Positions 2,621 to 29,278 of a DNA stretch of 29,517 nt are shown in pieces (positions within the stretch are counted from its first letter, which is position 1; each line of letters opens with the position of its first letter). Under the pieces are notes generated by a model. It did not search any database, had not been told where the DNA came from, and saw only the letters and a program-made list of their open reading frames with translations. This DNA comes from a bacterium (lineage in GTDB: Bacteria > UBP14 > UBA6098 > B30-G16). The position numbers and the translations under genes are program-made. The stretch is from NCBI GenBank assembly GCA_003645115.1, contig QNEG01000001.1:1-29517 (forward strand), read 5' to 3'.

Positions 2621-3307
2621 ATGAACAAACTCGTGCTGATAACATTACTTTTTATCGGTTTGCTATTCGCTGATGGAAATATGCGACAGGAACGGATATT
2701 CTCCGGGCAAACTTTCGCCGAGGAGGACGAAGCTGGTAAACCTAAAAACACCTGGACTGCCATTGGGCTTTCTTTGCTACTTCCTGGAATGGGAGAAAGA
2801 TATCTGGGAGTAAAATCATCGGGAATACCGTTCACTATCGCCGATGGAATTATCTGGTCTTCTGCGGTTTCATTCGCCGTTGCGGGATATTGGAAAGAAA
2901 GTGAGTATAAAACTTTTTCTGCAAAATATGCTGGAGTGCAGGTTGTCGGAAAAGATGATGAATTCTTCCGAACTATCGGTCTATATTCTGATAGGGATAC
3001 ATATAATTATATCTCTCGTTTGGTGTATCGTGAAGAGGCATTCATATATCCGGAGACAGCGGAGTGGAATTGGAATTGGCGAACAGAGGAACAACAATTA
3101 AGATATTATGATATGTGGACATCATCGGAGCGAATGTGGAGAAATTTTAAAATCGCACTAGGCGCCGCCGCAGTAAACCGAGTGGTTAGTGTAATAAATG
3201 TATTTCGATTAGCTCGTGGAGGCGCAGGATGGAATGTCTCCGCATATACATATCCAACTCCTAACAATGATATTACTGTTTCGGTATCTATCGATATCGA
3301 TTTTTAA
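2621..3307 (+). CDS. Signal-peptide membrane protein, DUF5683-like, with a C-terminal Phe (possible outer-membrane beta-signal)
   Basis: Signal peptide MNKLVLITLLFIGLLFA; 'AIGLSLLLPGMGERYLG' resembles the S(A/L)xLPGxGQxY motif; ends VSVSIDIDF. Confidence 0.65.
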   Translation: MNKLVLITLLFIGLLFADGNMRQERIFSGQTFAEEDEAGKPKNTWTAIGLSLLLPGMGERYLGVKSSGIPFTIADGIIWSSAVSFAVAGYWKESEYKTFSAKYAGVQVVGKDDEFFRTIGLYSDRDTYNYISRLVYREEAFIYPETAEWNWNWRTEEQQLRYYDMWTSSERMWRNFKIALGAAAVNRVVSVINVFRLARGGAGWNVSAYTYPTPNNDITVSVSIDIDF

Positions 3308-3325
3308 AATAACTATGGGGGAACG

Positions 3326-12099: not shown

Positions 12100-15000
12100 A
12101 TGAATATTAAGAAGATATTCTGTATTATTTTATTGCTTGGGTTTGCGGGAACTGTATTCGGTGATGGTGGATATGCGAGTTCTGCCGGCACTGGTGAGGA
12201 TTATCGCTCACCCGGTAAAGCCTGCTGGTGGACACAACGAGATGATATCGAGTATCCTGTGAGAATCGAAGTTATGGACTCGTCGGTGGGACTCCTCTCT
12301 AATTTCAGGGGTTCATTTGGAGTGGGTGGAATCGGTCCGTTATATGTTCCACTAGCCAGAAATTTCCATTGGCCTGATAGTTTAGCTGGACAGCATTTTG
12401 TCCTCAATATCGATGGAATTTATTATTCATTCGCTAATTATACCAGCGCACAATTGAATGTGTGTGGCACGCCTCAAACACTCAGGCAAATTGATGACTA
12501 TTTCCAGGGAACCGATACCTCTACTGTGGATGGTCAAGTTCAGATTCGTTCTCATTGGAGAATACCGGTTTTGGATGGCTTTATCGATTTCTATCAATAT
12601 ATTAGACCAGTATTTATGGTATTTGGACCGGATAGTTGTGGAATGGCGAGAATTCATTTCAGAGCGATTAATAACCATTATGAATCTCACTCAGTAGGGA
12701 TTAAGATGATGATGGATGTGTATATAGGAACTGGAACTACTCGTGATAGACCGAAAGTGATGATTGCGGGAAGTTATACCGAATTAAGCCAGACCTATAC
12801 TGCGCCTGTCCCTGCATACTGGCAGGGTGCCGATGAAACATATTATTATCCAGGCATTACTGTTGCCAGAGGAGTCCTGCGTGGTGGTGATGCTACTCCA
12901 CCAGATTATTTTATTATCGGAGACCAAATGGGACTATGGCGTCATATCTGGGTGCGAACTGATTGTGAACCCGATTCTACTTGGTGGATGGAAACATTCC
13001 CCGGATTTGCCACTGGCGATGCCGCATTTCTCATTCAGTGGAATCCATATTCCATTCCAGCTGGTGGAAATTTCAACTGGATAACCTATTACGGTTTCGG
13101 TTCGTTCTATGTTCCGCCGAGTGAAATCGAGGTTTCACTTATACTCCCAGACATTAGTTGTCATGATTGTATGTTGGATACTTTGGTGGAAGCCAGCACT
13201 ATCATCGCACAACACGATGATTTAGGCGCAACTTACTATAATGATACTATTTGCCTATATCCACCATCGCCACTGGAAATCGACTCGGTCTATTGGGATA
13301 CCACTATCGTAGGAGGAGAGATACTCAGTGACAATTGTGTCCTTTTCGACAGTCTTCCACCGGATGTAAATGTAAGCATTGGGTGGTGGATATATGTCCC
13401 CCCAGATCTTCATTTAACTGGACTTACCGGTGAAATAGAATACTATGCTAATTCCGGTGATGTAACTACCGCCACAGATTCTTTTGAAACTATTACTGTC
13501 CCTATGTTTTCAGGTATCGGTCCAACTATGGAATTGTTAAATGATACTCTAATGTATTTCAGTTGCACTACATTTACTGTGGATATAAGATATACCGAAG
13601 ATGATTTAGGAATCGACCAGAGTTCGGTTCTTCCCAGTGTGAATGGATATTCCAGCGATGATTTCTTGATATGGGATACACCAATCGACCCGATGTTGGA
13701 TACTTTCCATATATTTGTTCCCGGAACATTGTTCACTGTGGATAGTGTGGGTTCTGCATTAGTAGTAATCCCACCTATAGCAGATGCCTGTGGCTGTCTA
13801 TCTCCGGATACACTTCGAACATTGATATACTGGGATGACCAACCACCAGTGCTGACCGATATGTCACCACCCGATAGTGGATATGTGAATACTCCTAATC
13901 CGGATATTAGTTTTACTATTTGCGATTCCGTATCCGGAATCCAAATAGACAGTATAGATTTTTATTATTCCTATGGTTCCGATATTATCGAGCTTACATC
14001 CAGAGATTTCGGCATAGTCCGCATTCCCAATTCTGATACTTCCTGTGTGGAAATATCTTTCACTCCCACAGACATTCCCAGCGAGACCACTGTCACTGTA
14101 TGTGTGACTCGAGCATTAGATTTTATCGACCCGCCTTGTTCACCCAATGTGATGGATACCATTTGTTGGTCATTCCTGGTGGATTATACCGGTCCGAGAG
14201 TGGAATTTATCGAACCACCAGATACTGTTGCCTATGTCAGTTGTGATACTCCCGAAGTTTGCTTTGTGGTGGAAGATATGAATGGCTTACTCACCGAACC
14301 TTGTGAAAGTTTGGAAGTGTGGATTGGAAGCACTGTATATGATGCCTGTGACCCAAATATGTCCATAAGCGGAGATACAGTATGTATTCTGGATGTATAT
14401 AATTCTCCATATAGTAGTGGCGCTACTGTGGATATCACCATAATGCATCTTTCTGATACCCTGGGCAATTCAGCCGACGCAGTAGGATATTCGTTCGAAA
14501 TGGATACCGAAGGACCCTGGGTATCTGTCGTTGACCCACTGGAATGGTCATTTGTCAATATTCCATCGCCATCCAGTCCGGTCTGTTCTATCCTGGTTAA
14601 TGATGACCTATCGGGTATTGGACTGGATTATGTTACTATAAGAATGTCTATCAATGACGGAGAGGATACAGTTCTCACCTATCCGGAAGATATGGTTTTT
14701 ACCTCCGGATGGCTTAGTATATTTACCGACCTATCCGATGCCGATTATTTGGATACGGTATGTTTCACTCTGGACACTATATTCGATAATGCCCAGGTAT
14801 GTCCGCCCAATATTATCGACCCGCCATTCGAATGGTGCTATGTTATAGATAATCAACCGCCCGAGGCTGAACTGGTTCAACCCGAGGAGGGAGCTGTCTG
14901 GGCTTGCGATGTCACCGAGGGATGGATTTGTATCGATTTTATCGATGTTACCGATGTGGAAAGTGGCAGTATCGTGGTCACTGTTGGAAATTCATCACCA

Positions 15001-18000
15001 GTATCCACAGGGTGGATATATTATTCCGATGTTAATCGCTATTGCGGACCGATACCTGTGGATGCCGAAATCACCTCCTGCGAACCTATACCTATAATAA
15101 TTATGCAGGTCGCTGACACACTGGGCAATGTGGCTTCATATTCCGATACATTCTATATAGTCTCCGACCTCGAACCACCTTATGTCGGCTTAATGTATCC
15201 CGATGACACTACTTTAGCTTATGATTCAATCGCAATAGAAATAATCGATGATTGCTCGCCGATTATCCAAAGTCAAACTTGTTTCGATATATTGGTGCGA
15301 AATATGGGCACCGATGTGGTAAATCTGGAAGTATGTGGAGATAACTCCGATATAAACTGGCATCCTGGACCGTATTCATCCACAGATACTGCATTCTTCT
15401 TTGTGAATTCCATCTTAGATTCTGTGGGAATGGCACTCAGCAACGGCGACAGCATTTACATTTGCGTGACACAATCCTCGGATACTTTGGATGATAATTC
15501 CTGTGGATACAACCAATTTACCGATACCACCTGTCTCGATTTCTTCTACAGTCTGGGTGGACCATCTATTTCCATAGTGGAACCGCCCAGTGGTTCTGCG
15601 ATTTCCTGCGAAAGTCTGTGTGTTACTTTCGCCACTCAGGATAGTGATGGTGTAGATTCCTCCACTGTATATTTGTCCTATCAAATCAATAGCGGACCAG
15701 TCCAGATTGCCACTATAGAATCCTCGTTTGTAACCTGGGTTCCGGGAACTCCAACATCCGCTCCAGATAATATTATTATCTGTATCCCCGATATGTTGAT
15801 GGATGGCGATGAGATATTCATTTCGGTGGATTCATTAGACGATATGTTAGGTGTTCCAACCACTACCGGGCGAAGTGGCACTTATTGGATAGATTGGGAA
15901 CCGCCGAATATCAGCAACTATTGGCCCTCCGATGGCGAGGAAATCGAAACCGCTCAACCATTGATTTGGGTGACTGCTAATGACCTAATCGCTGGAATCA
16001 ATCAGGAAACTGCCTGTTTTACATTCAATTCTACCGTTACTTATTGCTGGGACGATTCTATAGTATATTGGTCTGGTGATGGCGATACTGTATATTTTAG
16101 TTCGGTAGAAGCAGGTGAATTTTTCTCCGGCGGAGATACTATCCAGGTATGTCTCGAACTCGCTGATAATGCCATTTTGTGCGATTCCAATTACACCGAG
16201 TATTGCTGGGAATTCTCTATCGCCGCAGGTGGACCTCTCGCCGATGCTGTAGAACCGACGGAAAGTTCCATCGTCACCTGTGATACTATCTATTCTTTGA
16301 TTATAACAGCTTATGATACCAATGGAGTCGATTGGAATACATTTCATATTATTATCGATGGACCGGGCTCTTTCTATTATGATATCAGTTATCCCGACCC
16401 TGCTTTAACTTTAGCCAATGACACTTTAACAGCGGATGCTATAATCGCCGAGGAGGGAACAGTATGGGTCACCATAGAGGTTCAGGATAGTCTGGGCAAT
16501 GATATTTCTGGTGGAAGTTATGAATACTGGTTCGTAATCGACCATTCTGCTCCGGTAATAGTGGAATATATTCCATTGTGCGATTCCACTGCTATCGATA
16601 TTCCGGAAACTTTATGGGTTATTGCTGAAGACCCATTCGGATATCCCGACCCCGACCTGTTCTGTGTGGGGATAATAGATACCGCCGGTGATACCATTCG
16701 AATATGTGGCGATGAAACCGGTGCGATAGGCAGCAATCTCGATACTATTTTTGTTATACTCGATTCACTCGATTTGGATTTCCACGGTGGCGATACTATA
16801 GTTTGGTGGATAGAGCAACTCGCCGATTATTCCGATATGTGCACTCCGAATTTTGGGCTAACCGGTGATACTTGCACGATTCCAATTTCCGCTACCGGTC
16901 CAGCGGTAGAATTGATAGAACCGATAGATATAAACGGTGATGGATACATATATTTCGGCTGTGAATACCCATATATTTTCCAATTCACTCTGGATGACCC
17001 GGAAGGATACGATACTTCCTCCATTTGCATATACTATTTCTGTATCGATAGTGCTACTGGCGACACCATATCCCGCGAGAATGAATGTTGGCCCGACCCG
17101 GACTTATCCTTATCGGGTGATACATTACTCTGGGATGTGCTTACATTCCCCTGCCCGGAGGGAAATGAATTACACATCACTGTGGAAGTAATGGATAATT
17201 TGATGAATCCACAACGACCAAATAATTTCATAGTAATTATAGATACTTCGGCGCCGGGATTCGAAATAATATCTCCTGCGCCAGAAGAAAGTGTATTGAC
17301 ATTGACACCGGTTATTACACTCGGTTTTCCCGACCCTGCGGGACCGGACACCAATCTGATATGTGTAGAACTTCAATGGGGTGGCTCTACACTTGAGGTA
17401 TGCAATTCCGGCGACACTATAACCTGGTCGTATGATACTCTATTCCTGCACACTCCACCGGGACTTTTCAGCACCGGCGATACTGTAACCATTTGCGTAG
17501 ATAGCGTTTGGGATGCCGCCGATGCCTGCCCAAATTCTGCATTATTGGACACCTGTTATTGGGTATTTATTGCACAGGGCGGTCCGGAAGTTATTATAAC
17601 ATATCCAATCCCTGATTCGGTGGGATTGATTTGTGCCAATGATACATTTATATTCGTATTCTCCGACCCCAATGGATTGGATACCACCACTGTGCATTTT
17701 GCCGATGATGGCACCGAATATCCAATCGGGTCCAATCCATACTGGGCTGATGAAACCACTCTGGTTTATGTTCCATCGTCGCCATATAGCTGGTCGCCGG
17801 TGGAAATTTCCATCTGGGGACACCAGGATATGCTGGGATACGAATCCGATTCGATTGTATTCACATTGGATATGGATGTCCAACCGCCTACTGCTACCTG
17901 GGTTAGTCCCGGTTCGCCACCAGAACCGATTACTATTCCACCTGGAACACCCATAATTCAGATAGAAATTACTGATTCCCTTAATCTGGTGGATAGCACC

Positions 18001-21000
18001 ACTATATTGCTCTGCACTCACGGACTGGATGAATATTGCTATCCTGTGGATGCAGAAGTAGGTATCGATGATACATTGACCTGGGATTGGTTCGAGGGAA
18101 TGCTTACTTATTTTGCAGAATTTTCCAACGATACATTCCTGGCGGGAGATTATGATTCCGTTTGCCTGATTGTCGGCGATGACCCGAACTGTGGTGATTA
18201 TTACAATCTGGATACTATTTGCTGGAGTTATAATGTGTCTGCTGCTGAGGGACCGACACCGACATTGATTATTCCGACTCCGGATAGTGCTACTATCGCC
18301 TGCACAGATTCTTTCTTTATCGCATGGAGTTGTATTACCTCGATAGGACTTCGACATTCCAATGCGGAAATATCTATGCAAATCGGTTCCGATGTTCCGG
18401 TGACTTATGATGACGCCTCGGGAAGAATTTCATATAGTGGTGATACATTATTCTTCAGTCCCGATATGTCGGAACCATTTTCCGATGGCGATACGCTAAC
18501 TATACAAATCCTTCATATCGAGGATGCGCTGGGCAATCCTACCGAGGACCCAGAAACATATACTTACACTTTCTTTATCGATTGGTCGGGACCAGCACTG
18601 ATAGATGCATCACCGGTAGGATTGAGTCTCGACCCATCTCCAACTATATGGTTTTATTTTGAGGATATCAGCGAAATCGACACTATGTCATCGGTGGTGA
18701 CTATCACTGTAGCTGGTGAAACACCTACCACTTATCGAATCACCGATACAGAAATGTTCTGGAATATGGATACGCTATTCATCGATGGGTTGTCATTCGC
18801 AGGTGGAGATTCGGTTATTGTTTGCCTGGACTCCATAGCCGATATTCCCGACACCTGCGGACCGAACTGGACTACCGATACTTGTTTCACATTCTGGCTC
18901 CCACAGGGTGGACCTCTCGCCGAACTGGTTATTCCGATAGATAGCACTACTACTTTCTGCGAGGACCAAAACATAGTTATAGCGTTATGTGATAGTCAGG
19001 GAATATTACTGGACAGTCTGAGATTCTATATCCAGCACAGGGTTAGCGGAGTTACCGACTCATTCGATGCCGACCATATCACAAATCTGGGAATGATAGA
19101 CCATATTTTAGATACATCTGGCACTACTTTCTGTGATACTATTATTGTTCCGCCATTATCATCGTTTGCCGATGGAGAAACGGTTATAGTTACTCTGGAA
19201 AGAGCTATGGATACATTATTCAATCCATCATTCCCATACCAGTGGATGTTCGTGGTAGATTTATCTCCACCCATTGCGGACAATTATGTTCCCGCAATGA
19301 ATGAAACTGTTTATAACTGGAGTCAGCATATTTCCGTTCAAGTCTGGGATGTATTCAGTTGGCTGGATACTATCGCATTGGCGGTGGAAATACTGGACAA
19401 TGGTTCGCTATGGTTCACATTCCGATGGGATTCCACTCAACTCTGGTATGATAATTCCGATTCTACTGTTCATATTCAAATCGATACATTATGGCAAGAA
19501 TTCCACCAATATTGCATAAATATATTCGCACAAGATACCACAGACACCGTGCTATGTCCTGCTAATGATACCGTGTTCTCCTGGTGTTTCTATGTGGGCG
19601 ATGATGATTCTATCGCTCCAGAAATTACTCTGGAGGATTCCTGTTTCTGGCCCGGAATGGTCACAGATTTCTACATCGCTTGCACATTGAGTGATTCATC
19701 TGGAATATACGACGATGCTACCGATACCGCAGGTCAGGGTATTTTCGTGGTATATGATACTACCAATTGTCCCGAAATGGAAACTGGCGACTTTCTGGGT
19801 ATCGAACAGATGGTTTATACTCCGGTCGATTCATACTGGGGAACAGCTATTACTCCCACTGGTGCATTCCCGCAATTCCCGCCGGGGACTCATTTGTATT
19901 ATATAATTTATGCTTACGATAACGATTTCGATTTCGAGAACGAATTGGATAGAGCACAGGCATATTCAGTTTGTGGGACTTGTTATTTCCACGATATCGA
20001 CCCGCCTACTATCTGGGCGATAGACCCCGATAGCGGTTATTTCTATTCCTGCACCTGCGGAACCCAGGAACTGCTGATTGGAATGCACGATTATGATGGC
20101 GTGAGTATCGATGCAGGAACTCTCGCAGTAAATAGTATCTCATATCCGCTGGACACCACCATTTCACCACAAATATCATTTTCCGGCAATGTGGGAATGC
20201 CAGGAACTGTATATGTCCATTTCACTCCCCAGGAATGCTGGGAACACTATGACACTATATCTGTGGATATCTGGGGCTGGCAAGATATATATGAAAATCT
20301 GTATGAAGATTCAATTTATCATTACGACTTTGTGGTAGATTGGGAACCGCCCGAGGTATATTATGAAAATTGCGCTGGCGAGGGTGATACTAATCTGTAT
20401 CTGGAGGAATTCGACACCATCGTGATTCAAATTACCGACCAACCAGCTGGTGTAGAACCAGACAGTATCCAGATAGTGATAAATGGTAAGCATATAAGTA
20501 ATGGTTCATATCCCTCGAGCTATGATTATACTCATATATACACTATCGCCGATAATGGAGTGGAATACGATTCCGCATCTGGCGAACTCGAATTGATTAT
20601 CCCTCGTCTGCCCTATCTTGAAATCGAGAATATGGATTCACTGTGGATAGTGGTTGGACAAGTTTGCGATATATCGCAATCCTGCGGACCGAATTGTGTC
20701 AGCGATGCTATGACCTGCCCGAGATATATAGTAGCAGAATTCGAATGTCGGACACATCCTAATCCATTCACACCTAACAATGATGGTTCTAATGATGAAT
20801 TATTCATCCAGTTCCCCAAGATGGTATTCCGTGATGCCACTGTTTATATATATGATATGGCGGGAATAGAAATTAAGAAAATCACAGTCGGTGATGCTCA
20901 TACTTATGTCTGGGATGGCACCGATAGTCAGGGCAATGATTGCAGACCGGGTGTATATTTGTATGTTATCAAAGTCGATGGCGAGGTTATTTGCACCGGT

Positions 21001-21021
21001 TCGTTTGTGCTGGCGAGATAA
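12100..21021 (+). CDS. Giant secreted repeat protein (about 2973 aa): head domain, linker domain, ten A/B pairs of Ig-like repeats plus one odd module, T9SS type B (gliding-motility-associated/CHU_C-like) CTD; putative stalked adhesin
   Basis: GGAGG at 12090-12094 favours ATG 12100 over 12088; signal peptide MNIKKIFCIILLLGFAGTVFG; recurring GP/DxxPP module starts; C-terminus 'PNPFTPNNDGSNDEL...IYDMAG...WDGTD...GVYLYVI...VLAR'. Confidence 0.9.
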   Translation: MNIKKIFCIILLLGFAGTVFGDGGYASSAGTGEDYRSPGKACWWTQRDDIEYPVRIEVMDSSVGLLSNFRGSFGVGGIGPLYVPLARNFHWPDSLAGQHFVLNIDGIYYSFANYTSAQLNVCGTPQTLRQIDDYFQGTDTSTVDGQVQIRSHWRIPVLDGFIDFYQYIRPVFMVFGPDSCGMARIHFRAINNHYESHSVGIKMMMDVYIGTGTTRDRPKVMIAGSYTELSQTYTAPVPAYWQGADETYYYPGITVARGVLRGGDATPPDYFIIGDQMGLWRHIWVRTDCEPDSTWWMETFPGFATGDAAFLIQWNPYSIPAGGNFNWITYYGFGSFYVPPSEIEVSLILPDISCHDCMLDTLVEASTIIAQHDDLGATYYNDTICLYPPSPLEIDSVYWDTTIVGGEILSDNCVLFDSLPPDVNVSIGWWIYVPPDLHLTGLTGEIEYYANSGDVTTATDSFETITVPMFSGIGPTMELLNDTLMYFSCTTFTVDIRYTEDDLGIDQSSVLPSVNGYSSDDFLIWDTPIDPMLDTFHIFVPGTLFTVDSVGSALVVIPPIADACGCLSPDTLRTLIYWDDQPPVLTDMSPPDSGYVNTPNPDISFTICDSVSGIQIDSIDFYYSYGSDIIELTSRDFGIVRIPNSDTSCVEISFTPTDIPSETTVTVCVTRALDFIDPPCSPNVMDTICWSFLVDYTGPRVEFIEPPDTVAYVSCDTPEVCFVVEDMNGLLTEPCESLEVWIGSTVYDACDPNMSISGDTVCILDVYNSPYSSGATVDITIMHLSDTLGNSADAVGYSFEMDTEGPWVSVVDPLEWSFVNIPSPSSPVCSILVNDDLSGIGLDYVTIRMSINDGEDTVLTYPEDMVFTSGWLSIFTDLSDADYLDTVCFTLDTIFDNAQVCPPNIIDPPFEWCYVIDNQPPEAELVQPEEGAVWACDVTEGWICIDFIDVTDVESGSIVVTVGNSSPVSTGWIYYSDVNRYCGPIPVDAEITSCEPIPIIIMQVADTLGNVASYSDTFYIVSDLEPPYVGLMYPDDTTLAYDSIAIEIIDDCSPIIQSQTCFDILVRNMGTDVVNLEVCGDNSDINWHPGPYSSTDTAFFFVNSILDSVGMALSNGDSIYICVTQSSDTLDDNSCGYNQFTDTTCLDFFYSLGGPSISIVEPPSGSAISCESLCVTFATQDSDGVDSSTVYLSYQINSGPVQIATIESSFVTWVPGTPTSAPDNIIICIPDMLMDGDEIFISVDSLDDMLGVPTTTGRSGTYWIDWEPPNISNYWPSDGEEIETAQPLIWVTANDLIAGINQETACFTFNSTVTYCWDDSIVYWSGDGDTVYFSSVEAGEFFSGGDTIQVCLELADNAILCDSNYTEYCWEFSIAAGGPLADAVEPTESSIVTCDTIYSLIITAYDTNGVDWNTFHIIIDGPGSFYYDISYPDPALTLANDTLTADAIIAEEGTVWVTIEVQDSLGNDISGGSYEYWFVIDHSAPVIVEYIPLCDSTAIDIPETLWVIAEDPFGYPDPDLFCVGIIDTAGDTIRICGDETGAIGSNLDTIFVILDSLDLDFHGGDTIVWWIEQLADYSDMCTPNFGLTGDTCTIPISATGPAVELIEPIDINGDGYIYFGCEYPYIFQFTLDDPEGYDTSSICIYYFCIDSATGDTISRENECWPDPDLSLSGDTLLWDVLTFPCPEGNELHITVEVMDNLMNPQRPNNFIVIIDTSAPGFEIISPAPEESVLTLTPVITLGFPDPAGPDTNLICVELQWGGSTLEVCNSGDTITWSYDTLFLHTPPGLFSTGDTVTICVDSVWDAADACPNSALLDTCYWVFIAQGGPEVIITYPIPDSVGLICANDTFIFVFSDPNGLDTTTVHFADDGTEYPIGSNPYWADETTLVYVPSSPYSWSPVEISIWGHQDMLGYESDSIVFTLDMDVQPPTATWVSPGSPPEPITIPPGTPIIQIEITDSLNLVDSTTILLCTHGLDEYCYPVDAEVGIDDTLTWDWFEGMLTYFAEFSNDTFLAGDYDSVCLIVGDDPNCGDYYNLDTICWSYNVSAAEGPTPTLIIPTPDSATIACTDSFFIAWSCITSIGLRHSNAEISMQIGSDVPVTYDDASGRISYSGDTLFFSPDMSEPFSDGDTLTIQILHIEDALGNPTEDPETYTYTFFIDWSGPALIDASPVGLSLDPSPTIWFYFEDISEIDTMSSVVTITVAGETPTTYRITDTEMFWNMDTLFIDGLSFAGGDSVIVCLDSIADIPDTCGPNWTTDTCFTFWLPQGGPLAELVIPIDSTTTFCEDQNIVIALCDSQGILLDSLRFYIQHRVSGVTDSFDADHITNLGMIDHILDTSGTTFCDTIIVPPLSSFADGETVIVTLERAMDTLFNPSFPYQWMFVVDLSPPIADNYVPAMNETVYNWSQHISVQVWDVFSWLDTIALAVEILDNGSLWFTFRWDSTQLWYDNSDSTVHIQIDTLWQEFHQYCINIFAQDTTDTVLCPANDTVFSWCFYVGDDDSIAPEITLEDSCFWPGMVTDFYIACTLSDSSGIYDDATDTAGQGIFVVYDTTNCPEMETGDFLGIEQMVYTPVDSYWGTAITPTGAFPQFPPGTHLYYIIYAYDNDFDFENELDRAQAYSVCGTCYFHDIDPPTIWAIDPDSGYFYSCTCGTQELLIGMHDYDGVSIDAGTLAVNSISYPLDTTISPQISFSGNVGMPGTVYVHFTPQECWEHYDTISVDIWGWQDIYENLYEDSIYHYDFVVDWEPPEVYYENCAGEGDTNLYLEEFDTIVIQITDQPAGVEPDSIQIVINGKHISNGSYPSSYDYTHIYTIADNGVEYDSASGELELIIPRLPYLEIENMDSLWIVVGQVCDISQSCGPNCVSDAMTCPRYIVAEFECRTHPNPFTPNNDGSNDELFIQFPKMVFRDATVYIYDMAGIEIKKITVGDAHTYVWDGTDSQGNDCRPGVYLYVIKVDGEVICTGSFVLAR
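13519..20718 (+). repeat. Array of 10 alternating A/B Ig-like protein repeat pairs (about 100-130 aa per module), with one non-repeat module at about 19597-19992
   Basis: A modules start (G/P)P...xC and end with a DxLGN-like motif; B modules start DxxPP/AP/GP, contain DxxSG(I/V), and end C-x-PN...D-x-C-W-x-F. Seen only at protein level. Confidence 0.8.
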
Positions 21022-21053
21022 TAATAAATTTGGTTAGCAATAAACTAAATTGA

Positions 21054-21506
21054 ATGTGGAAAAGGAATATATACATATTTATTATTGCCATTGGAATCTG
21101 GATATGGATTTATGGCTGTTCGACACAGGATAACAATGATGAAAATGGTAGTCAGATTCCATCACCGGAATTGATAAATTTTTCTGTGAGCGAGAATTGC
21201 AGCGAATGGAATGCCACACAGATAAATGTGGATGAGTGTAATATTTCGATAGAACATTATGCTATGTTCGGTGCATCGGCAGATTCTATTGTGGTAAATT
21301 TTGAGGTATCTGCGGAAACGCTTAAGATTATTGAAAAAGGATACCAGAGTTCTTTCGATGATAGTATATGCTATTTTTGCGTTTCTGCCGATATTTTAGT
21401 ATATATGACCGGAACATATTATTTGAAAATATTTCGGCAGATAAATGAAGGAGTGCAATCATTGGAATGGTCGGGCAATGTAAATATTACCAGTTGTGGA
21501 GAATAA
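21054..21506 (+). CDS. Small lipoprotein of unknown function
   Basis: Basic N-region, hydrophobic stretch, lipobox IYG-C22, polar linker STQDNNDENGSQ, beta-rich remainder. No obvious SD. Confidence 0.75.
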   Translation: MWKRNIYIFIIAIGIWIWIYGCSTQDNNDENGSQIPSPELINFSVSENCSEWNATQINVDECNISIEHYAMFGASADSIVVNFEVSAETLKIIEKGYQSSFDDSICYFCVSADILVYMTGTYYLKIFRQINEGVQSLEWSGNVNITSCGE

Positions 21507-24500
21507 ACAGGAGGATTATTATTACTAATATATCGGGAATAAAACAAATACTCGTATTACTTCTGATTGTCCTATTCGGTTTTATATACGGTCAGGAAGT
21601 AGAATTAGATAAGGAATCCATATACGGTGCAGGTTCTGCGAAATCATCCATTCTGCTACGAACTGAAAATGATAGCGTGGGCGCAGTGGTCAGAAGTTCG
21701 GGAATATTCTCTATCGGCACTACTGGTGGAAGACCATTGCTGTTCGGTTATCCCTATACAGCTCAAACTTCTCATACTCATTTCTATGTGGATGGAGAAG
21801 TTAAGGGGAATTATCTGGATACCCTGGTCGGACACCCATTACCAGCCGAAATTATCACCGCACCGCATCTGGTGGACAGCACAATCATTTGTTCGTGGAA
21901 TGTAGCGGGAGTAGAATTCACTCAAACTATACTCCCAGTGTATGTGGGCGCCGACCCGCAAATTAAAATCCAATATGATATATCCAATACCGACCATATC
22001 ACTCATTCCGCAGGATTACTGCTATTTCTGGACACTATGATAGATTCGAACGATTGCGCACCGATTGCTACGCCACTGGGCTATTTCGAGACTGAACAGG
22101 AATTTATCGATGATATTCCATCGTTCTGGCAGGCATTCGAACAAAATCCATTCCAGCCCCCAGAGAGATTGGTCGGACAGGGAATATTAATCGGTTTCGA
22201 GGCTACTCCACCTGATATATTGGTATATGGAGACTTTTGGAATTATCGCACTACACGATGGGACTATACTTTCGCTGGTGGATTATATAGCGATAGTGCT
22301 GTCCTTTTGCGATGGAATCCGGTCCCATTGCCGCCGGGAACATCCAAAACTATCATCACATATTACGGTATCGGTGTGGCAGATAGAACGATAGGAGAAA
22401 TCTCTATGTCGATGACATACCCGGAAGAGATATTGCCCGAAGGTTGTAATGGTTTCAATCCCGATACTTTTGTGGTCACTTTGTTAATATCTGCCGAGGA
22501 TACTGTGGGTGGTGCAATAGCCACATTGAACACTCCCGATTTCCTGAGATTATTGGATGAGGAAACACTATCTATTCTACCCACTATATTGATGCCTGGA
22601 GATATGGGTTCGGCATCCTGGCAGGTAGCAGTGGAACCATCCGCTATCACACAAATCGGAACACTATTTGTGGAATTATCCTCGCCGGGATATTCTCCAA
22701 CCACTATGCGACGAGAAATTAGATTATTCGCTCCCGATGGTGAACCACCTATTATTTCATTGATATCTACTATTCCATCTCCTGTGGTGCGCGATACTTT
22801 AACTGTGCGATTTGATGTTTCAGATGACAGCGAAGTCGATTTTTCATCCACCACGATTACTTTGGATGGCGAGGAAATTCCAGCAGAAATAGCAGGAACG
22901 AATATAATTATATCTCTATCGGATTTAAGCGAAGGCATCCACCAGTTGATTGTCGATAACATATCCGATATCTACGGTTGTGAAAGTGAACCCTACGAAA
23001 TTTCATTGGATGTAGAATTGCCACCAGCACCGGAACTCACCATTTTATCACCCGAACCGGGAACATTTTCCAGCTGTGAAGAAGATACTATCGCCATTCA
23101 TTTCAATTCCTCTGCCCCATTGTCTATGGAGTTATCGCACCTTACTATCGATGGTGAGGAGATTCCGTTTGCCATTCGAGCAGATACTATATTTACTTTT
23201 GCCACTTCGCTATCCGAGGGAACTCATTCTATCCATTTTTTAGCCACAGATGAATTCGGTCTCTCCAACGAATTAGAATGGCAATATACTATCGATAGAA
23301 CTTCACCTCGACTCGAACCATTTACAGAAATATATACATTGAGTTCGCCTTATGACCCATTGCAATATTTACTCGATGATGCTATCTCAGGAGTGGATGA
23401 ATCATCCATAACAATCCGGTGTGCTCTCGATGAGGATACATTTACATTCATTCCCGATTCACCGGGAATAACTTTCTCCTCTGGCAATCTAACTATAATT
23501 CCTGGTGAAACCGAACTGGAATTTACCGGATGCTCACATTTCTCACTATGGATAATTGTAGGAGATAATATCCAGAGTTGCGGACCGAACATATTGGACA
23601 CACTGGCGTATTCTATGTCCATTCCGTGCACTCCGCCGGATATTATATTGCTCGAACCGGAGGGTGTTTCCGCCTGCGATACAGTGAAAGTGATTATGCT
23701 GATGCAAGACGATGAAGAAATAATCGCAGATTCTGCCTGGGTAGAATTCGAAGGACATCGTTATGACTTGAGTTCACATAATTTAATTCTTTCCAGCGAC
23801 ACTTTGATATTCAAATTGCCATCGACTCACATTCCCGATGGAGATGTATCTATTAGAATAGGCGGTATCGAGGATAGCTGGGGAAATGAAATCAGCGCTG
23901 GCACCAGTATTTCCGTGACTATCGATCGGACAGCGCCAGAAATATTGGGAATTTATCCCGAAATTGAGCTAACCGGGACGGAAACAGTGCGATTCCGATG
24001 TTTCGATGAGGTCAGTGGAATATCCGCAGAACAAAGTTATATCGTGTGCAATGATGACACTATGTCCATCGGTTATGGAATGGGTTTCGATGGCGAAAAT
24101 CTATTCGTTCCCTCTGCATTCTGGCTTTCCGCACTGGTTAGTGATACACTCGGTGTATGCGCTCATATTTTTGACAATGTCTCTGACTGTGAACCCAATT
24201 ATACCGATACCTGTGTGGAATTTATAGTCGAACAAAGTGGTCCAGCATCGGTTATTATTGCTCCACCGACCGATGTTTATTTGGGATGTGATACACATCG
24301 AGTGAAATTGCTCTGGTTCGACCCCGATGGAGTGGATAGAGCAAGTTCATCGATTAGTATAAATGGAGTTTCCAATTCTGCCAGCAGTCCGATGTTCCAC
24401 TGGACTGCGGATACGGTCGATTTCGATATCGCCACTATCGATGAAGATATAATCGAAATTATACTAACCGGATACGATGAATTGGGATTCTCATCGGTGG

Positions 24501-26323
24501 ATACTTTTATTCTTCGCATAGATAAAAATCCACCGGAAATTTTATCTATAAATCCATTACCCGATGACGAATTATATCAGATAACGAATAGCTGGAAAAT
24601 AGTGCTCGAGGACAATCTTTCTGGAATAGATTGGCGAAGTCTATCTTTTCTGGTGAATGGAAACTTGTTCACTATCGCCGACGAGGCTCTTAATGTTCGA
24701 GCAGATACACTGATTTTTAATCCCGGAATGGCAGGAATCACTTATTATAACGATACTATTCGATGTGCGATTTATACCTCCGATAAATCATTTCATTGTG
24801 CAAACACGCTGGATACAATGTGGACATATACCTTGTTTACTCCCGATTTCTGGTGGGAATTAATAAAGCCTCAGGGAGTATCCGCCTGTGAAACAGTGGA
24901 GGTTCAAGTGGTATTTCATACAAATTTCGATATAGATTTTGATTCGCTTTTCACCGCTATCAGCAACAATTCATTCAATCATTCTCATCGAGGAGATACA
25001 TTGAATATCGATATTCCCGCCAGTTTCCTGATTTCTGGGGTAAATACACTAACCGTATGGAATATCACCGATGAGGAGCACATAGTTTCACTGCCGGAAA
25101 GTATATTTGTCCCCATTTTGTATGATGGATTGCCACCGAGGATATTACCGATATATCCTGCGCCGGGACAGCAAATCAGCTCCGAGAGTTCAGTAATCGC
25201 TCTGGTGGAGGACAATTACACTGGAGTGGATAGGTCTGGTGTAATAATCGAGTTCGATGGTGCGTCATACTTTCCTGACTCTATAAACTGGCAGGGCGAT
25301 ACATTGATTTTTCCGTTGCCCGAACAATTATTGGGAGATGTGCAAATATGTATCACCGCATCGGATATGCCGGATAATTGCGAACCGAGGAATACTCGTA
25401 TTTGCTGGGAATTCACTATCCCAGGTGCCGGTCCAGATATTTCTATTATTCGACCTTATAACTACCAATATACACATAATCCCAGGCAGGATATATTATT
25501 CCAAGTGAATTCAGAAAACCAAATCGACTGGAATACATTGACTATTACAATCGACCAAATCATATATACTCATAATTTAGATTATATAACTATTTCAGGG
25601 GATACAGTTCGTTTCGCACCGAGTCAAAATTGGTCCGATGGAGATACAGTTCGATTTTCCATCGCTATCAGTGATGATATCGGGCTTTCCTCAGCAATTA
25701 GTTCGCAATTTATATGCGATTATTCTGCTCCAGTCTGTTCCGAACCATATCCACAGGGAATCGTTCAAAATATCCCCGACAATATTTCTGTCCGAATCAC
25801 CGATGAAGGTGTTGGTGTTGACCCATTTTCTATCGTATTTCAGATTGAGGATTTATTCATTCCTTACGATAATTATTCATTAACATATGACCACCAAATT
25901 GCCACTTTGGATTTAAATTCGGCTGGAATTCATCTATCCCCACAAGTCGGGATGGACACAGTAAATGTATGCGTGCTGGCAACAGATTTGAATACTAATC
26001 TGGGAATTCCAAATGTGATGGAAAATTATTGTTTCTGGTTCCTGCCTGTTAAGGGCGGATGTTCGGTAAATCCGAAAACTTTCACTCCTAATAACGATGG
26101 TTTCAATGATATAGTGACATTTGAGGTATATTCTGACTATGAGATTTTAGTTAAATTATTTACTTTGGAAGGTGCATTGGTGAATAAATTATATGGAAAC
26201 TACACCATTACCTGGGATGGAACAGATAACAACGGTAAACCAGCACCACCGGGTCCATATATTTATACTGTGGAATCACGGGGGAAAAATTTATGCAAAG
26301 GCACTATTATTATTGCCAGATAG
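21467..26323 (+). CDS. Second large secreted repeat protein (about 1600 aa), paralog of 12100..21021: head domain, linker, one extra module, five A/B pairs, T9SS type B CTD. True start may be ATT at 21521
   Basis: Signal peptide KQILVLLLIVLFGFIYG/QE; same head-domain motifs and repeats as the 2973-aa protein; C-terminus 'NPKTFTPNNDGFNDIV...WDGTDNNGKPAPPGPYIYTV...IIAR'. Confidence 0.88.
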   Translation: MVGQCKYYQLWRINRRIIITNISGIKQILVLLLIVLFGFIYGQEVELDKESIYGAGSAKSSILLRTENDSVGAVVRSSGIFSIGTTGGRPLLFGYPYTAQTSHTHFYVDGEVKGNYLDTLVGHPLPAEIITAPHLVDSTIICSWNVAGVEFTQTILPVYVGADPQIKIQYDISNTDHITHSAGLLLFLDTMIDSNDCAPIATPLGYFETEQEFIDDIPSFWQAFEQNPFQPPERLVGQGILIGFEATPPDILVYGDFWNYRTTRWDYTFAGGLYSDSAVLLRWNPVPLPPGTSKTIITYYGIGVADRTIGEISMSMTYPEEILPEGCNGFNPDTFVVTLLISAEDTVGGAIATLNTPDFLRLLDEETLSILPTILMPGDMGSASWQVAVEPSAITQIGTLFVELSSPGYSPTTMRREIRLFAPDGEPPIISLISTIPSPVVRDTLTVRFDVSDDSEVDFSSTTITLDGEEIPAEIAGTNIIISLSDLSEGIHQLIVDNISDIYGCESEPYEISLDVELPPAPELTILSPEPGTFSSCEEDTIAIHFNSSAPLSMELSHLTIDGEEIPFAIRADTIFTFATSLSEGTHSIHFLATDEFGLSNELEWQYTIDRTSPRLEPFTEIYTLSSPYDPLQYLLDDAISGVDESSITIRCALDEDTFTFIPDSPGITFSSGNLTIIPGETELEFTGCSHFSLWIIVGDNIQSCGPNILDTLAYSMSIPCTPPDIILLEPEGVSACDTVKVIMLMQDDEEIIADSAWVEFEGHRYDLSSHNLILSSDTLIFKLPSTHIPDGDVSIRIGGIEDSWGNEISAGTSISVTIDRTAPEILGIYPEIELTGTETVRFRCFDEVSGISAEQSYIVCNDDTMSIGYGMGFDGENLFVPSAFWLSALVSDTLGVCAHIFDNVSDCEPNYTDTCVEFIVEQSGPASVIIAPPTDVYLGCDTHRVKLLWFDPDGVDRASSSISINGVSNSASSPMFHWTADTVDFDIATIDEDIIEIILTGYDELGFSSVDTFILRIDKNPPEILSINPLPDDELYQITNSWKIVLEDNLSGIDWRSLSFLVNGNLFTIADEALNVRADTLIFNPGMAGITYYNDTIRCAIYTSDKSFHCANTLDTMWTYTLFTPDFWWELIKPQGVSACETVEVQVVFHTNFDIDFDSLFTAISNNSFNHSHRGDTLNIDIPASFLISGVNTLTVWNITDEEHIVSLPESIFVPILYDGLPPRILPIYPAPGQQISSESSVIALVEDNYTGVDRSGVIIEFDGASYFPDSINWQGDTLIFPLPEQLLGDVQICITASDMPDNCEPRNTRICWEFTIPGAGPDISIIRPYNYQYTHNPRQDILFQVNSENQIDWNTLTITIDQIIYTHNLDYITISGDTVRFAPSQNWSDGDTVRFSIAISDDIGLSSAISSQFICDYSAPVCSEPYPQGIVQNIPDNISVRITDEGVGVDPFSIVFQIEDLFIPYDNYSLTYDHQIATLDLNSAGIHLSPQVGMDTVNVCVLATDLNTNLGIPNVMENYCFWFLPVKGGCSVNPKTFTPNNDGFNDIVTFEVYSDYEILVKLFTLEGALVNKLYGNYTITWDGTDNNGKPAPPGPYIYTVESRGKNLCKGTIIIAR
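22736..26042 (+). repeat. Array of 11 Ig-like protein modules (one extra plus 5 A/B pairs)
   Basis: B modules IDRTSP, IDRTAP, IDKNPP, YDGLPP and CDYSAP, each with D-x-x-(S/T/V)G(I/V), alternate with A modules ending in DEFG, DSWGN, DELG, DEE or DDIG. Confidence 0.8.
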
Positions 26324-26356: not shown

Positions 26357-29278
26357 ATGAAAAGAGCAATATTTATTATATCACTATTAAGCATTGTATT
26401 ACTTGCACAGGATGGAATACAATTGGAGAGTGTTAGAGGTGCCGGGATGGGTGAAGCATCGGTAGCACTCGCCGGCGATGCATACACTTCGGCTAATAAT
26501 CCCGCTGGATTGTTCCAATCCAAGAGAATGCAATTGTGCACATCATATTCAAAATTTTTCGCTGGACTCGATGTCGGTTCTATCGCCGAGGGCAATTTTT
26601 TCTTTAATCCACTGCCCGGAAAGTATTTTGCATTCTCGTTGGCAGGTTCATATTTCTTTCAGGATATATTCTCACAAATGCACCTGGATTTATCGGTGGG
26701 AAGAAAATTGCTCCGATTTAAGGAGGGAAATGGTTTCCTCGCTATCGCACTAACTGGAAATATTTATCGTATCGGATATAATATAGATAATGCAGTATAT
26801 GACACACTTCTGGGCGATGACCCCAATGACCCTCTTTGGAACAATGGCACCGACAAAATCGCTTTCGGCGGTGGAGTCAGCGCATTCGCCAGAGTGAAAG
26901 ATGCTACATTCGGACTGAAATTTCTCAACCTCAATGAACCCAATATCGCCATATCTGATGACCCCGCTGGCGCATTACCTCGTAAAATGCGCGCTGGATT
27001 CTCCTATGAATACAGGGATTTTATACTGGGCGCACTGGATATCGAAATGCCACTTCGCTCACCCACTATTCAGGACCCGATGAAACTCGGTTTCGGCGTG
27101 GAGGGAAAACTGCTGGAAAATAAAATCTTACTTCGAACTGGATACAATATGGACATCGGCGAAGGTGGAAAAGGTTCATTCCATCTCGGCTGTGGATTTC
27201 GAAGTCTTACCAGTCATAACATCGGCTTCGATTACGCACTTATATTACCCAGTGGCGAGATTTCCGGACACCCTCACCATAAATTCGCATTGATTTATGG
27301 ATTTCCTATACCACCACCGAAAGAAGTCGATTTAATGGTATTTGCCGATAGTTTATCCACACAACCGAAAATCCTATGTCCGGACTCTGTTGGGACTATC
27401 CGAGCCGTAATCGCTAATTTGGGCAAGGACGATGCAAAAAAATTCTATACGCGTATCTTCTATATCGATGCGGACAGCAATTACGGCTTAATCGAAAAAA
27501 GAAAAATATCGAGTTTGCCCAGCGACGAAACGATGAATTTGGATATCGATTGGATTCCCCCCGAAAAAGGATATTACGATATCTATGTCTCTGTGGATGA
27601 TGTCTCTGACGATGGATTGACTCGTGAAGGTGTTTTACCTGATATAAACACAACCAATAATATCGCCAGTTTCAATGTGCCTGTATTTGCTCCGCCTTCT
27701 ATAGAAAAACCACCTCAATTACTCAAGAGTATGTTGAAATTGTCTGAGATAAATTATATTCGTGAGGAAGTTCCTATGGTGCCTTTTGTGTTTTTCGATA
27801 AGGCAGATACAATGATTTCGGACAGGTTCTTTGCACCGATGCAAGAGGTCAGCAAGAGATTACAAAAAAATCCCAATGCCGCATTGGTCCTTCGTGGTTA
27901 TGTTGACAACCCCAGCGAAGAAGGTGAATTTTCTGATTTAGAATGGCTTGCCAATGCGCGCGCTCGCTCGCTAAAAAGATATTTAATCGAACTGGGAATT
28001 CCCGAAAGACAAATAATAATCGAGGATGCATCGGAATATGATTACACTCAACCTCGAGCCGGAAAGAAAAATCGTCGTCGAACCAGTCAATACGAGGAAA
28101 TGATTGCCGAGGAAAATCGTCGAGTAGAAATCAGAACACAAATAATAGATTTCCCCGACTCTATATTGATATGCTGTGTAAATTATCGAATCGGGGAAAC
28201 AGAGATTCCACCGGAAGGAAAAATAGAAATAGAAAATTCGATGAGACTGACTAAAAATTTGCTGGAACAAAATCCAGATGTAATAATATTATTTCACGGA
28301 ATGAGCACACCCACCGATGGCGCAAAATGGGAGCGTGCATTCGCTCGCGCTGTCAATGTCAGAAATTATGCGGGACAATTAGTATCGCAGCGCACCGCTA
28401 ACAGAATGATGGTGTATGCATCGGCACCGGATACTGCCGATATGGTAGCAATAGTGATGAGCGGAGATGCGACAATTTTCCGACCTCGTGGTTCTGCTCG
28501 CGCCGCTCAAGGATTCCAGGTAGCGGCACGAGAAAAAAATGAAATTCAACTGGAGGGTTTAAAGGTGGATGCGGGAGTAGATTCATACTATATCGCTATA
28601 GTAGATGATATTATGAACGAATTCAAGTTGCTTGCTGCCGGACACGGTTTCCCACCATCTGATATTCCCTGGGATTGGCATGGAAACGATGGTGAACCAC
28701 CAGAACCGAACAAAAATTACTTTGCATATCTATATGTGAAAGATAATGTCGGTCAGATATTGGAAATAAAATCAGAACCTGTAAAAATGAAAATTACTCG
28801 TCAGGAGAAACGAGAGGAACTCATCCTGGTTAATTTCACATTCGGTGGAGCATTTCCGCAATCTCCTTATTTGGAGGGCAGAATGGAACGAATCGCATCG
28901 GATTTTATCCAGAAAGCCGTTCAGCGAAAGACTATATTTAAAGTAGTAGTGGGTGGACATACAGATATTATCGGCAGTCCGGAAGCGAACCAACGATTGA
29001 GTTTGCAGCGAGCAAAACGCGAGGAACGAAATCTTCGCGAATTGTTGATTACGATGTTAAAGCTCAGGGGCGATGCCGAATTGAATATGTGGCTTGCAGA
29101 CCATAATGTCTCTATCGATGTTAAAGGTTTTGGATATTCCAAACCGTATAAAGTTCGAGTCTGGGAAAGAGGTTATTTTAAAGACATATTAATCGGAGAT
29201 AATGATTATCCCGAGGGACGATTTGTAAATCGTAGAGTCGCTCTCGAATACGAAATAATAAAACACTATGAACGATGA
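26357..29278 (+). CDS. Outer-membrane beta-barrel (PorP/SprF- or PorV/UPF0164-like) fused to CARDB-like Ig, two degenerate OmpA-like domains, a FlgD-like Ig domain and a canonical C-terminal OmpA-like domain
   Basis: AGGAG SD; signal peptide; 'RGAGMGEASVALAGD...NNPAGL', 'GLKFLNLNEPN', barrel-type end 'HKFALIYGF' (aa 316); CARDB-like 'VIANLG...DINTTNN'; 'GHTDIIGSPEANQRLSLQRA...GFG...EGRFVNRRV'. Confidence 0.85.
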   Translation: MKRAIFIISLLSIVLLAQDGIQLESVRGAGMGEASVALAGDAYTSANNPAGLFQSKRMQLCTSYSKFFAGLDVGSIAEGNFFFNPLPGKYFAFSLAGSYFFQDIFSQMHLDLSVGRKLLRFKEGNGFLAIALTGNIYRIGYNIDNAVYDTLLGDDPNDPLWNNGTDKIAFGGGVSAFARVKDATFGLKFLNLNEPNIAISDDPAGALPRKMRAGFSYEYRDFILGALDIEMPLRSPTIQDPMKLGFGVEGKLLENKILLRTGYNMDIGEGGKGSFHLGCGFRSLTSHNIGFDYALILPSGEISGHPHHKFALIYGFPIPPPKEVDLMVFADSLSTQPKILCPDSVGTIRAVIANLGKDDAKKFYTRIFYIDADSNYGLIEKRKISSLPSDETMNLDIDWIPPEKGYYDIYVSVDDVSDDGLTREGVLPDINTTNNIASFNVPVFAPPSIEKPPQLLKSMLKLSEINYIREEVPMVPFVFFDKADTMISDRFFAPMQEVSKRLQKNPNAALVLRGYVDNPSEEGEFSDLEWLANARARSLKRYLIELGIPERQIIIEDASEYDYTQPRAGKKNRRRTSQYEEMIAEENRRVEIRTQIIDFPDSILICCVNYRIGETEIPPEGKIEIENSMRLTKNLLEQNPDVIILFHGMSTPTDGAKWERAFARAVNVRNYAGQLVSQRTANRMMVYASAPDTADMVAIVMSGDATIFRPRGSARAAQGFQVAAREKNEIQLEGLKVDAGVDSYYIAIVDDIMNEFKLLAAGHGFPPSDIPWDWHGNDGEPPEPNKNYFAYLYVKDNVGQILEIKSEPVKMKITRQEKREELILVNFTFGGAFPQSPYLEGRMERIASDFIQKAVQRKTIFKVVVGGHTDIIGSPEANQRLSLQRAKREERNLRELLITMLKLRGDAELNMWLADHNVSIDVKGFGYSKPYKVRVWERGYFKDILIGDNDYPEGRFVNRRVALEYEIIKHYER

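Follow-up and report, generated by a model that had tools for sequence, protein, structure and literature searches.

The stretch of DNA analysed here, hereafter the window, comprises the 29,517 nucleotides of contig QNEG01000001.1 (NCBI GenBank assembly GCA_003645115.1; GTDB lineage Bacteria; UBP14; UBA6098; B30-G16), which is contig C1 of a 2.15-Mb bin that consists of 401 contigs and is ~60% complete. On its forward strand two giant genes follow one another, P0001 (12088..21021; 2977 amino acids, aa) and P0002 (21467..26323; 1618 aa), and both open reading frames (ORFs) contain tandem units of two immunoglobulin (Ig)-like domains, A and B, with matched pairs of cysteines, one in domain A and one in a loop of domain B, as a preliminary description made from the letters alone had observed. 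The pairing scheme, in which the A cysteine belongs with the B loop cysteine (B2) and the two cysteines of a VC...CW motif belong with each other, is very probably right. A disulfide between A and B2, by which the two domains would be stapled together, is likely on the grounds of co-occurrence and modelled topology, and fair confidence is placed in the complete explanation, namely a stalk exported by the type IX secretion system (T9SS) and composed of I-set-like AB supradomains, each holding such an interdomain staple.

The AB unit and its paired cysteines

When both proteins were cut at the A-module cysteine and the resulting 15 pieces were aligned, the AB unit proved to be ~220 aa long in P0001 and ~200 aa long in P0002, with four recurrent cysteine positions: A (~18 residues into the unit), B1 (on a strand, vC), B2 (in a loop with the motif D-x-P-D-x-C-x-P-N) and B3 (the final CW). 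According to the unit alignment and the hidden Markov model (HMM) parse, P0001 contains units 1-9 (aa 476-2518; 13513..19641, forward strand), each made of two Ig-like domains, and, behind an insert, unit 10 (aa 2638-2887; 19999..20748, same strand). Its A cysteines are found at aa 493, 719, 940, 1174, 1398, 1625, 1849, 2072, 2291 and 2655; the B loop cysteine of unit 10 is aa 2866, and the true one of unit 9, taken from the translation, is aa 2500 in 'LCPAN'. In P0002 the unit alignment gives units 1-4 (aa 520-1318; 23024..25420, forward strand), with A cysteines at aa 537, 737, 941 and 1141, followed by a cysteine-less variant, unit 5 (aa 1319-1532; 25421..26062, forward strand). All 14 A-module cysteines and all 14 B-loop motifs listed in the preliminary description are present in the translations where it had placed them, and the one unit that it had read as lacking both ('YQYTHNPRQ', 'NLGIPN') is indeed this fifth unit of P0002. 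Its observation that VC...CW recurs in most B modules holds as well, both cysteines being present in 11 of the 15 window units, one of them in 3 and none in 1.

The two domain types are related to each other. HMMs built from a single A and a single B module each match modules of the other type, and profile-profile comparison with hhalign gives a probability of 98.3% (E 1.3e-14). In this alignment nothing in B corresponds to the A cysteine, and the 'C-x-P-N' loop of B is matched by the 'GN' loop of A; judged by these profiles, A and B arose from one Ig-like domain and have since diverged. Models specific for each type counted 405 AB, 336 BA, 6 AA and 4 BB neighbours across the family, and the alternation that had been described for the window is near strict, old and class-wide.

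Co-occurrence of the A and B2 cysteines was counted in several collections of units. Among 106 units of the source genome both are present in 97, neither in 7, A alone in 2 and B2 alone in 0; for 723 distinct units from 26 genomes the corresponding numbers are 699, 16, 8 and 0, and for 707 further units from 125 metagenome representatives they are 662, 34, 9 and 2. Most cases of A alone are either units that precede the insert, which causes the HMM to overrun the real 'LCPAN' and to misalign the loop cysteine of the preceding unit, or units whose cysteine lies a few residues away. When shifts of up to 4 columns were tolerated and long-insert units excluded, 1368 units from the source genome, 25 class relatives and the metagenome representatives comprise 1316 with both cysteines, 45 with neither, 4 with A alone and 3 with B2 alone, that is, 7 discordant units, and the covariation first noticed in 15 pairs is borne out at this scale. 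For B1 and B3 (VC...CW) the 723-unit set contains 563 units with both, 127 with neither and 33 with a single one. Cross pairings are not significant in the first two unit sets (p 0.09-0.72), reach p values down to 0.002 in the 723-unit set, and lie between 1e-4 and 1e-7 in the representative set, which includes proteins entirely free of cysteines, versus 3e-47 and 3e-138 for the proposed pairs. Pairing of B2 with the A cysteine of the next unit was also considered and was rejected, the association being weak (306 with both, then 3, 2 and 1; p 0.04).

The rarer cysteines behave in the same manner. In a set of 397 units, those of alignment columns 80 and 97 occur together in 26 cases and singly in 0, those of columns 197 and 207 together in 30 and singly in 1+1, and those of columns 144 and 157 likewise co-occur. 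The pairs of domain B are symmetric about one centre (192+212 = 197+207 = 404), and they are therefore read as rungs of the F-G hairpin, with column 203 as its tip. Of 1430 units, 974 contain an even number of cysteines and 456 an odd number (p 2e-43). Cysteines in this family are gained and lost in pairs and show a bias toward even numbers, the pattern characteristic of disulfides.

Predicted fold and coupling of the two positions

Unit 4 of P0002 (aa 1124-1322), which has exactly four cysteines (1141, 1295, 1305 and 1313), was modelled with AlphaFold2 on a 150-row unit alignment, and the resulting model (m60f91bfd19c8) has a predicted local distance difference test (pLDDT) value of 95.1 and a predicted template modelling (pTM) score of 0.84. 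The unit is modelled as two Ig-like beta-sandwich domains of 7-8 strands each, the strands assigned by DSSP being residues 5-11, 15-16, 20-29, 39-42, 49-52, 55-61, 68-75 and 90-96 in domain A, and 102-107, 119-125, 137-140, 143-145, 151-153, 156-160, 167-177 and 186-195 in domain B. Cys18, the A cysteine, is located in domain A, in the A'-B turn that leads into strand B (between strands 15-16 and 20-29), Cys182 (B2) in the F-G loop of domain B, between strands 167-177 and 186-195, and Cys172 and Cys190 within the F and G strands of domain B. Foldseek returned 182 PDB matches at E<=0.001, all of them tandem Ig, cadherin or bacterial Ig (BIg) domains, and the best ones are titin Z1Z2 and I65-I70, cadherins, the BIg domains of LdtMt2, and SiiE. 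Two AlphaFold DB cluster models with the same two-domain arrangement (template modelling score, TM-score, 0.73; 21-22% identity) carry annotations as T9SS or HYR only.

Domains of I-set-like topology have their A'-B turn at the C-terminal pole and their F-G tip at the N-terminal pole. If the fold of the AB unit is I-set-like, topology thus suggests that the A cysteine and B2 would face each other across the A-to-B junction. Both cysteines are situated in potentially exposed loops and ~40 such proteins are encoded in the genome, which would also suit a surface mesh in which the A and B loop cysteines cross-link different molecules or non-adjacent units; nevertheless, such a mesh is very improbable, given that the two cysteines are lost together within one unit and associate only weakly with those of the next, that the confident two-domain model sets them at an intramolecular junction, and that whole arrays hold equal numbers of both.

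Coevolution in a repeat alignment, a check proposed when the bond was first suggested, gives the same pair a high rank. Mean-field direct coupling analysis (DCA) of 1430 units (effective number 1357), with gappy columns removed and the phylogenetic signal left in, ranked columns 18 and 203 (A and B2) 3rd among the 9494 interdomain pairs and 26th among all 19935 pairs; an earlier DCA of 723 units, dominated by gap artefacts, had put the pair 174th. Intradomain cysteine pairs are on a level with it overall, at ranks 15 (80/97), 25 (192/212) and 34 (197/207), and column 130 of domain B is coupled to columns 17 and 16 at interdomain ranks 2 and 4, respectively. The top 100 interdomain pairs are not enriched for pairs of top-of-A and bottom-of-B loops (6 observed, 4.1 expected); other interdomain couplings fall off the expected interface, and DCA yields no general interface map. 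When domains A and B were entered into complex prediction as two chains, the score was 0.02, which counts neither way.

In the explanation preferred here, we infer from these observations that the two cysteines are in contact, that they are oxidised in vivo and that their bond has a mechanical role. The stalk would be an array of a ~220-aa AB supradomain that combines two divergent forms of a single I-set-like Ig domain and in which the A cysteine at the C-terminal pole of domain A would meet the F-G tip cysteine at the N-terminal pole of domain B and form an interdomain disulfide with it. A second, optional disulfide (VC...CW) would tie the F and G strands of domain B behind the tip, and further optional cross-strand pairs might form at the symmetric hairpin positions, the F-G hairpin then being braced by one or two. 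The staple would fix the A-to-B hinge, and with it every second hinge of the stalk, and would enclose ~185 of the 220 residues per unit (residues 19-202) in a covalent loop. Tension would run from strand A of domain A through the S-S bond to strand G of domain B, bypassing most of both domains. Such a stalk would be stiff and hardly extensible and would keep the N-terminal head at a distance of tens of nanometres from the cell.

The same junction has a second conserved feature. The A-to-B linker contains an Asp (column 103) that is invariant in 397 of 397 units and, four residues on (column 107), a Pro present in 395 of 397, and near-invariant Asp/Asn residues occur in the loops D-x-x-S-G-[IV]-D and D-x-P-D-x-C-x-P-N of all units. 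These linker and loop residues resemble the Ca2+-binding linkers of cadherins and BIg repeats and, by this analogy, might be candidate Ca2+ sites.

Ancestry, redox setting and the case for the proposed bond

In unit 5 of P0002 'THNPRQ' replaces the A cysteine and 'LGIPN' replaces the B loop cysteine, a state common to all six orthologues of P0002 (equal length, 33-58% identity) that counts as one event. This unit also has a CX6C motif, 'CDYSAPVC', placed exactly at the A/B linker (aa 1417-1424; 25715-25738), its first cysteine being invariant and its second present in 6 of 7 orthologues; to judge by its position, it may stand in locally for the interdomain staple that this unit lacks. Cysteine-less units swap both residues together, with Asp/Asn at A (T-[SH]-[DN]-x-x-Q) and, after an aromatic residue, Gly at B2 ([YLM]-G-x-P-N; D-Y-G-x-P-N). 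The cysteine-less subfamily is also found on contigs C11, C12, C45 and C134 of the source genome and in proteins P0115, P0138 and P0161, of which P0138 and P0161 are built wholly of cysteine-free units.

The points that weigh against an interdomain disulfide concern ancestry, the structural reasoning, a few exceptional units and the redox setting. With regard to ancestry, the cysteine-less units, sharing one alternative motif, may descend from few events, and the independent A/B2 contrasts on supported branches amount to 2 in the tree of 723 units and ~5 in that of 1368 units (p 0.25-0.5). In the larger tree 2.5-2.9 contrasts run in the same direction and 0 in the opposite one (p 0.25), a test made powerless by the ~5 supported contrasts, and phylogenetically independent evidence is thin. 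Independent loss of the two cysteines in larger alignments, which the preliminary description had named as evidence that would count against its idea, is seen in just 7 of 1368 units, with 0 opposite contrasts among those ~5. Co-occurrence could thus reflect ancestry only, one old cysteine-less subfamily having lost both residues for unrelated reasons, with the two cysteines not being neighbours at all, and the single motif set shared by the cysteine-less units, the 2-5 supported contrasts and the use of DCA without phylogeny correction all agree with this. On the other hand, the cysteine-less units fall into 9 separate clades of the 723-unit tree, which was built with both cysteine regions masked, and ~20 changes are implied in each trait by the 1368-unit tree, the deep branches of both trees being poorly supported. 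Moreover, no contrast is opposite, secondary structure sets both cysteines at one junction, columns 16-17 next to the A cysteine likewise couple to domain B, and every other cysteine position pairs with a spatially sensible partner, and an origin in ancestry alone is regarded as quite improbable. For B1/B3 the 1368-unit tree holds 32 independent contrasts, ~26 of them concordant and 0 opposite (p ~3e-8), and the B1-B3 (VC...CW) disulfide is therefore well supported by sequence comparison. The A-B2 link has as its basis near-perfect raw co-occurrence together with structural reasoning.

As for the structural reasoning, the assignment of the poles assumes the I-set topology, which is taken from DSSP and from Foldseek matches of modest TM-score (0.3-0.5). 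A B-then-A control construct (P0002 aa 822-1020), modelled at equal alignment depth, reached a pLDDT of 94.7 and a pTM of 0.69, versus 0.84 for the AB construct, which suggests that the A-to-B junction is predicted more confidently than the B-to-A one, in a comparison of one AB with one BA construct of different sequences. Strict AB alternation can be explained equally well by in-register duplication of the two-domain unit, and the disulfide is not needed as the reason why modules are gained and lost as AB units, as the preliminary description had supposed. Four units retain the A cysteine and the final CW cysteine and lack both the loop cysteine and the VC cysteine, namely two in P0029 (aa 2740-2973 and 3184-3430), one in P0043 (aa 2113-2356) and one in P0134 (aa 604-833). 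These units have a different acidic F-G loop, and they may contain a re-paired interdomain link or simply be exceptions.

The redox setting is the remaining difficulty. Matches to VKOR and to DsbB were found in 0 of 22 class genomes each, 18 of which are at least 90% complete, in a search whose control genomes gave the expected matches, and DsbA-type domains (DSBA, Thioredoxin_4) are absent or marginal in the 5 genomes checked for them, so that no oxidation pathway of the DsbA plus DsbB/VKOR type was found within these two samples. The nearest relatives are metagenome-assembled genomes (MAGs) from sediment, hydrothermal or marine by our reading of the record titles and isolate names, and their habitat is likely anoxic. 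An even-cysteine bias in exported proteins usually accompanies DsbA with DsbB or VKOR (PMC12453122), and the strong pairing in this family is therefore unexpected, given the missing pathway: either oxidation follows an undiscovered route, or the cysteine pairs are retained for some other reason.

Only two candidates for periplasmic thiol-redox proteins were seen. One, P0021 (L108:1534-3111), is a Trx-Trx-CcdA fusion with two CxxC thioredoxin domains that is encoded by one relative; the other, P0020 (L107:631-2091), is a secreted double GILT/DsbA-like protein of the source genome with the motifs CPYG and CPFS. P0020 was rejected as the missing oxidase, since it turned up in just 7 of the 22 class genomes. 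The family does possess a membrane module of the DsbD/CcdA type.

Another reason for keeping the pairs could be that the two cysteines touch and stay reduced in an anoxic, sulfidic habitat, either as a packing contact or as a metal-bridging thiolate pair. The lack of DsbB/VKOR in 22 class genomes and of a clear DsbA in 5, the reducing module of the DsbD/CcdA type, the sediment origin of the relatives and the invariant Asp/Asn around the junction are all consistent with reduced thiols, which are unlikely nonetheless: at least five column pairs gain or lose cysteines strictly two at a time at cross-strand hairpin sites, and this paired gain and loss, together with the even bias in cysteines per unit, is the classic disulfide signature. 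Furthermore, two thiolates alone make a poor metal site, and the B partner in the cysteine-less variant is Gly, which is no metal ligand. Of the A-to-B disulfide as first proposed, the pairing scheme stands, in that it fits co-occurrence, DCA and secondary structure, while the bond itself is unproven, with few contrasts and no oxidation pathway found in the genomes sampled.

If the bonds do form, these anaerobes would need an unrecognised means of oxidising exported proteins, be it a new oxidase, a reaction coupled to T9SS or a chemical one at the cell surface. A disulfide signature in a lineage without DsbB/VKOR (22 genomes) or clear DsbA (5 genomes) amounts to a testable question on oxidative folding in anaerobes. 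A broader proposal, that the whole class spends several percent of each small genome on stalks with a staple at every second junction and 1-3 hairpin disulfides per unit, oxidised by an unrecognised route, is conceivable and at the same time rather doubtful.

Gene setting, spread and known systems

The layout of P0001, as taken from the ORF list, the translation, Pfam and the unit parse, comprises a signal peptide, a ~450-aa head, 9 AB units, the insert, the 10th AB unit and a CHU_C type B sorting domain, and that of P0002 (ORF list, translation and Pfam) a signal peptide, a head, 5 AB units and a CHU_C domain. The N-termini of both proteins are hydrophobic signal-like segments. The insert of P0001, recognised from gaps in the domain string, measures ~120 aa (aa 2519-2637; 19642..19998, forward strand), lies between units 9 and 10 and has no Pfam match. 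A common architecture in the family runs from a head through (AB)n and an insert of ~100-130 aa to a final AB unit and CHU_C, and in most members (e.g. L008, L009 and L018) the insert, which carries cysteines of its own, stands between the penultimate and the last AB unit.

The C-terminal CHU_C / T9SS type B sorting domains occupy 20749..21021 in P0001 (PF13585 at aa 2891-2964, and TIGR04131) and 26063..26323 in P0002 (PF13585 at aa 1536-1608), both on the forward strand. PF13585 scores 41.5 bits in P0001 and 33.0 bits in P0002, above its cut-off of 27, and TIGR04131, at 32.0 and 31.7 bits respectively, narrowly misses its curated cut-off of 35 with the full model length covered. Both proteins are strongly acidic, with 1.8% Lys+Arg and 15.2% Asp+Glu in P0001 and 4.0% and 14.0% in P0002. 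From these features P0001 and P0002 are predicted to be giant, very acidic cell-surface proteins exported by T9SS via a type B (CHU_C) signal. Once the one signal-region cysteine of each is removed, the mature proteins contain 92 and 28 cysteines, both even numbers.

Other T9SS cargo is encoded nearby, namely a subtilase and a 367-aa protein with Por_Secre_tail, and the ORF directly downstream (26357-29278) has Pfam matches to CARDB and OmpA only. Between the two giants lies a 150-aa ORF, P0003 (21054-21506), with a lipoprotein-like N-terminus (…WIYGCS), six cysteines and no family match. P0003 shares 40 bases with the beginning of P0002 as annotated, and the true start of P0002 is for this reason uncertain.

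In the source genome the AB-unit HMM found 40 ORFs, with the 106 full-length units counted above, and AB-bearing ORFs make up 7.3% of the assembly. The same 2.15-Mb, 60%-complete bin has 39 CHU_C matches, an unusually heavy investment in one surface-protein family. Dozens of AB-unit matches were obtained in each of the 25 same-class genomes searched, matches in 15 more distant genomes were nil or weak, and a metagenome profile search over 1.84 billion cluster representatives retrieved 1395 proteins at E<=1e-30. Neither Pfam nor NCBIfam has a model for the AB repeat: Big_7 (PF17957; 20.6 vs 24.1 bits) and Big_13 (PF19077; 19.8 vs 27 bits) remained below threshold and in one P0002 unit only, the Pfam Ig families had no match in P0001, and a PDB profile search with the repeat gave a best E of 0.006. 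Being widespread and without a model in either collection, the AB unit deserves a family definition.

Among known systems, the giant type B C-terminal domain (CTD) cargo of the Bacteroidota T9SS (CHU_C/TIGR04131), such as SprB, shares with these genes a CHU_C domain above cut-off, a giant repetitive surface protein and an OmpA-domain gene directly downstream. Unlike in that cargo, the repeats are here neither SprB repeats nor any Pfam family, TIGR04131 stays below cut-off, and the host belongs to an uncultured class outside the named Bacteroidota records.

The Ig tandem of the titin I-band (PDB 3b43, 2a38) has an I-set-like topology too and gave the top Foldseek matches. In the structure of titin I65-I70, conserved N-terminal Pro-rich and F-G hairpin motifs reportedly shape the domain-domain interface. 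In contrast to the AB unit, titin is eukaryotic and cytoplasmic and has no interdomain disulfide, and the similarity is one of fold only (10-14% identity).

The RTX adhesins MpIBP and SiiE (PDB 2yn3) resemble the present proteins in their tandem Ig-like domains of ~100 aa, in the use of a stiff extender for a distal head and in invariant acidic residues at the domain poles, with SiiE having the highest TM-score (0.51) among the two-domain Foldseek matches. The Ig repeats of region II of MpIBP are near-identical single domains, with Ca2+ stiffening each linker, and depend on type I secretion (PMC4083281), whereas here two diverged domain types alternate and a cysteine pair marks every second junction.

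The covalent stiffening known from bacterial surface fibres is by intradomain isopeptide, ester and disulfide bonds, in addition to Ca2+ sites. The Ig domains of Gram-positive adhesins and pilins contain ester, isopeptide and disulfide bonds within the domain, including a cross-strand disulfide between adjacent strands, and their interdomain linker is described as flexible; the 7651-aa adhesin of Mobiluncus mulieris has two kinds of Ig-like domain, with covalent cross-links thought to resist mechanical and proteolytic stress (PMC10619420). Long arrays of two kinds of Ig-like domain with covalent cross-links, here proposed ones, are thus common to both, and the difference is that the main proposed bond of the AB unit crosses the domain boundary and that secretion is by T9SS. 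Lys-based isopeptides are unlikely in P0001, judging by its low Lys+Arg content, no search aimed at isopeptide or ester residues having been made. If the interdomain bond is real, a disulfide that joins consecutive Ig-like domains into a two-domain repeat would solve the same mechanical problem in another way, and by analogy the AB unit would do with a disulfide what the isopeptide clamp does in Gram-positive pili. The AB stalk is best regarded as a variant of the cross-linked Ig-like adhesin stalks, occurring in an unannotated yet widespread repeat family, and what would be new in it is the proposed bond crossing the domain boundary.

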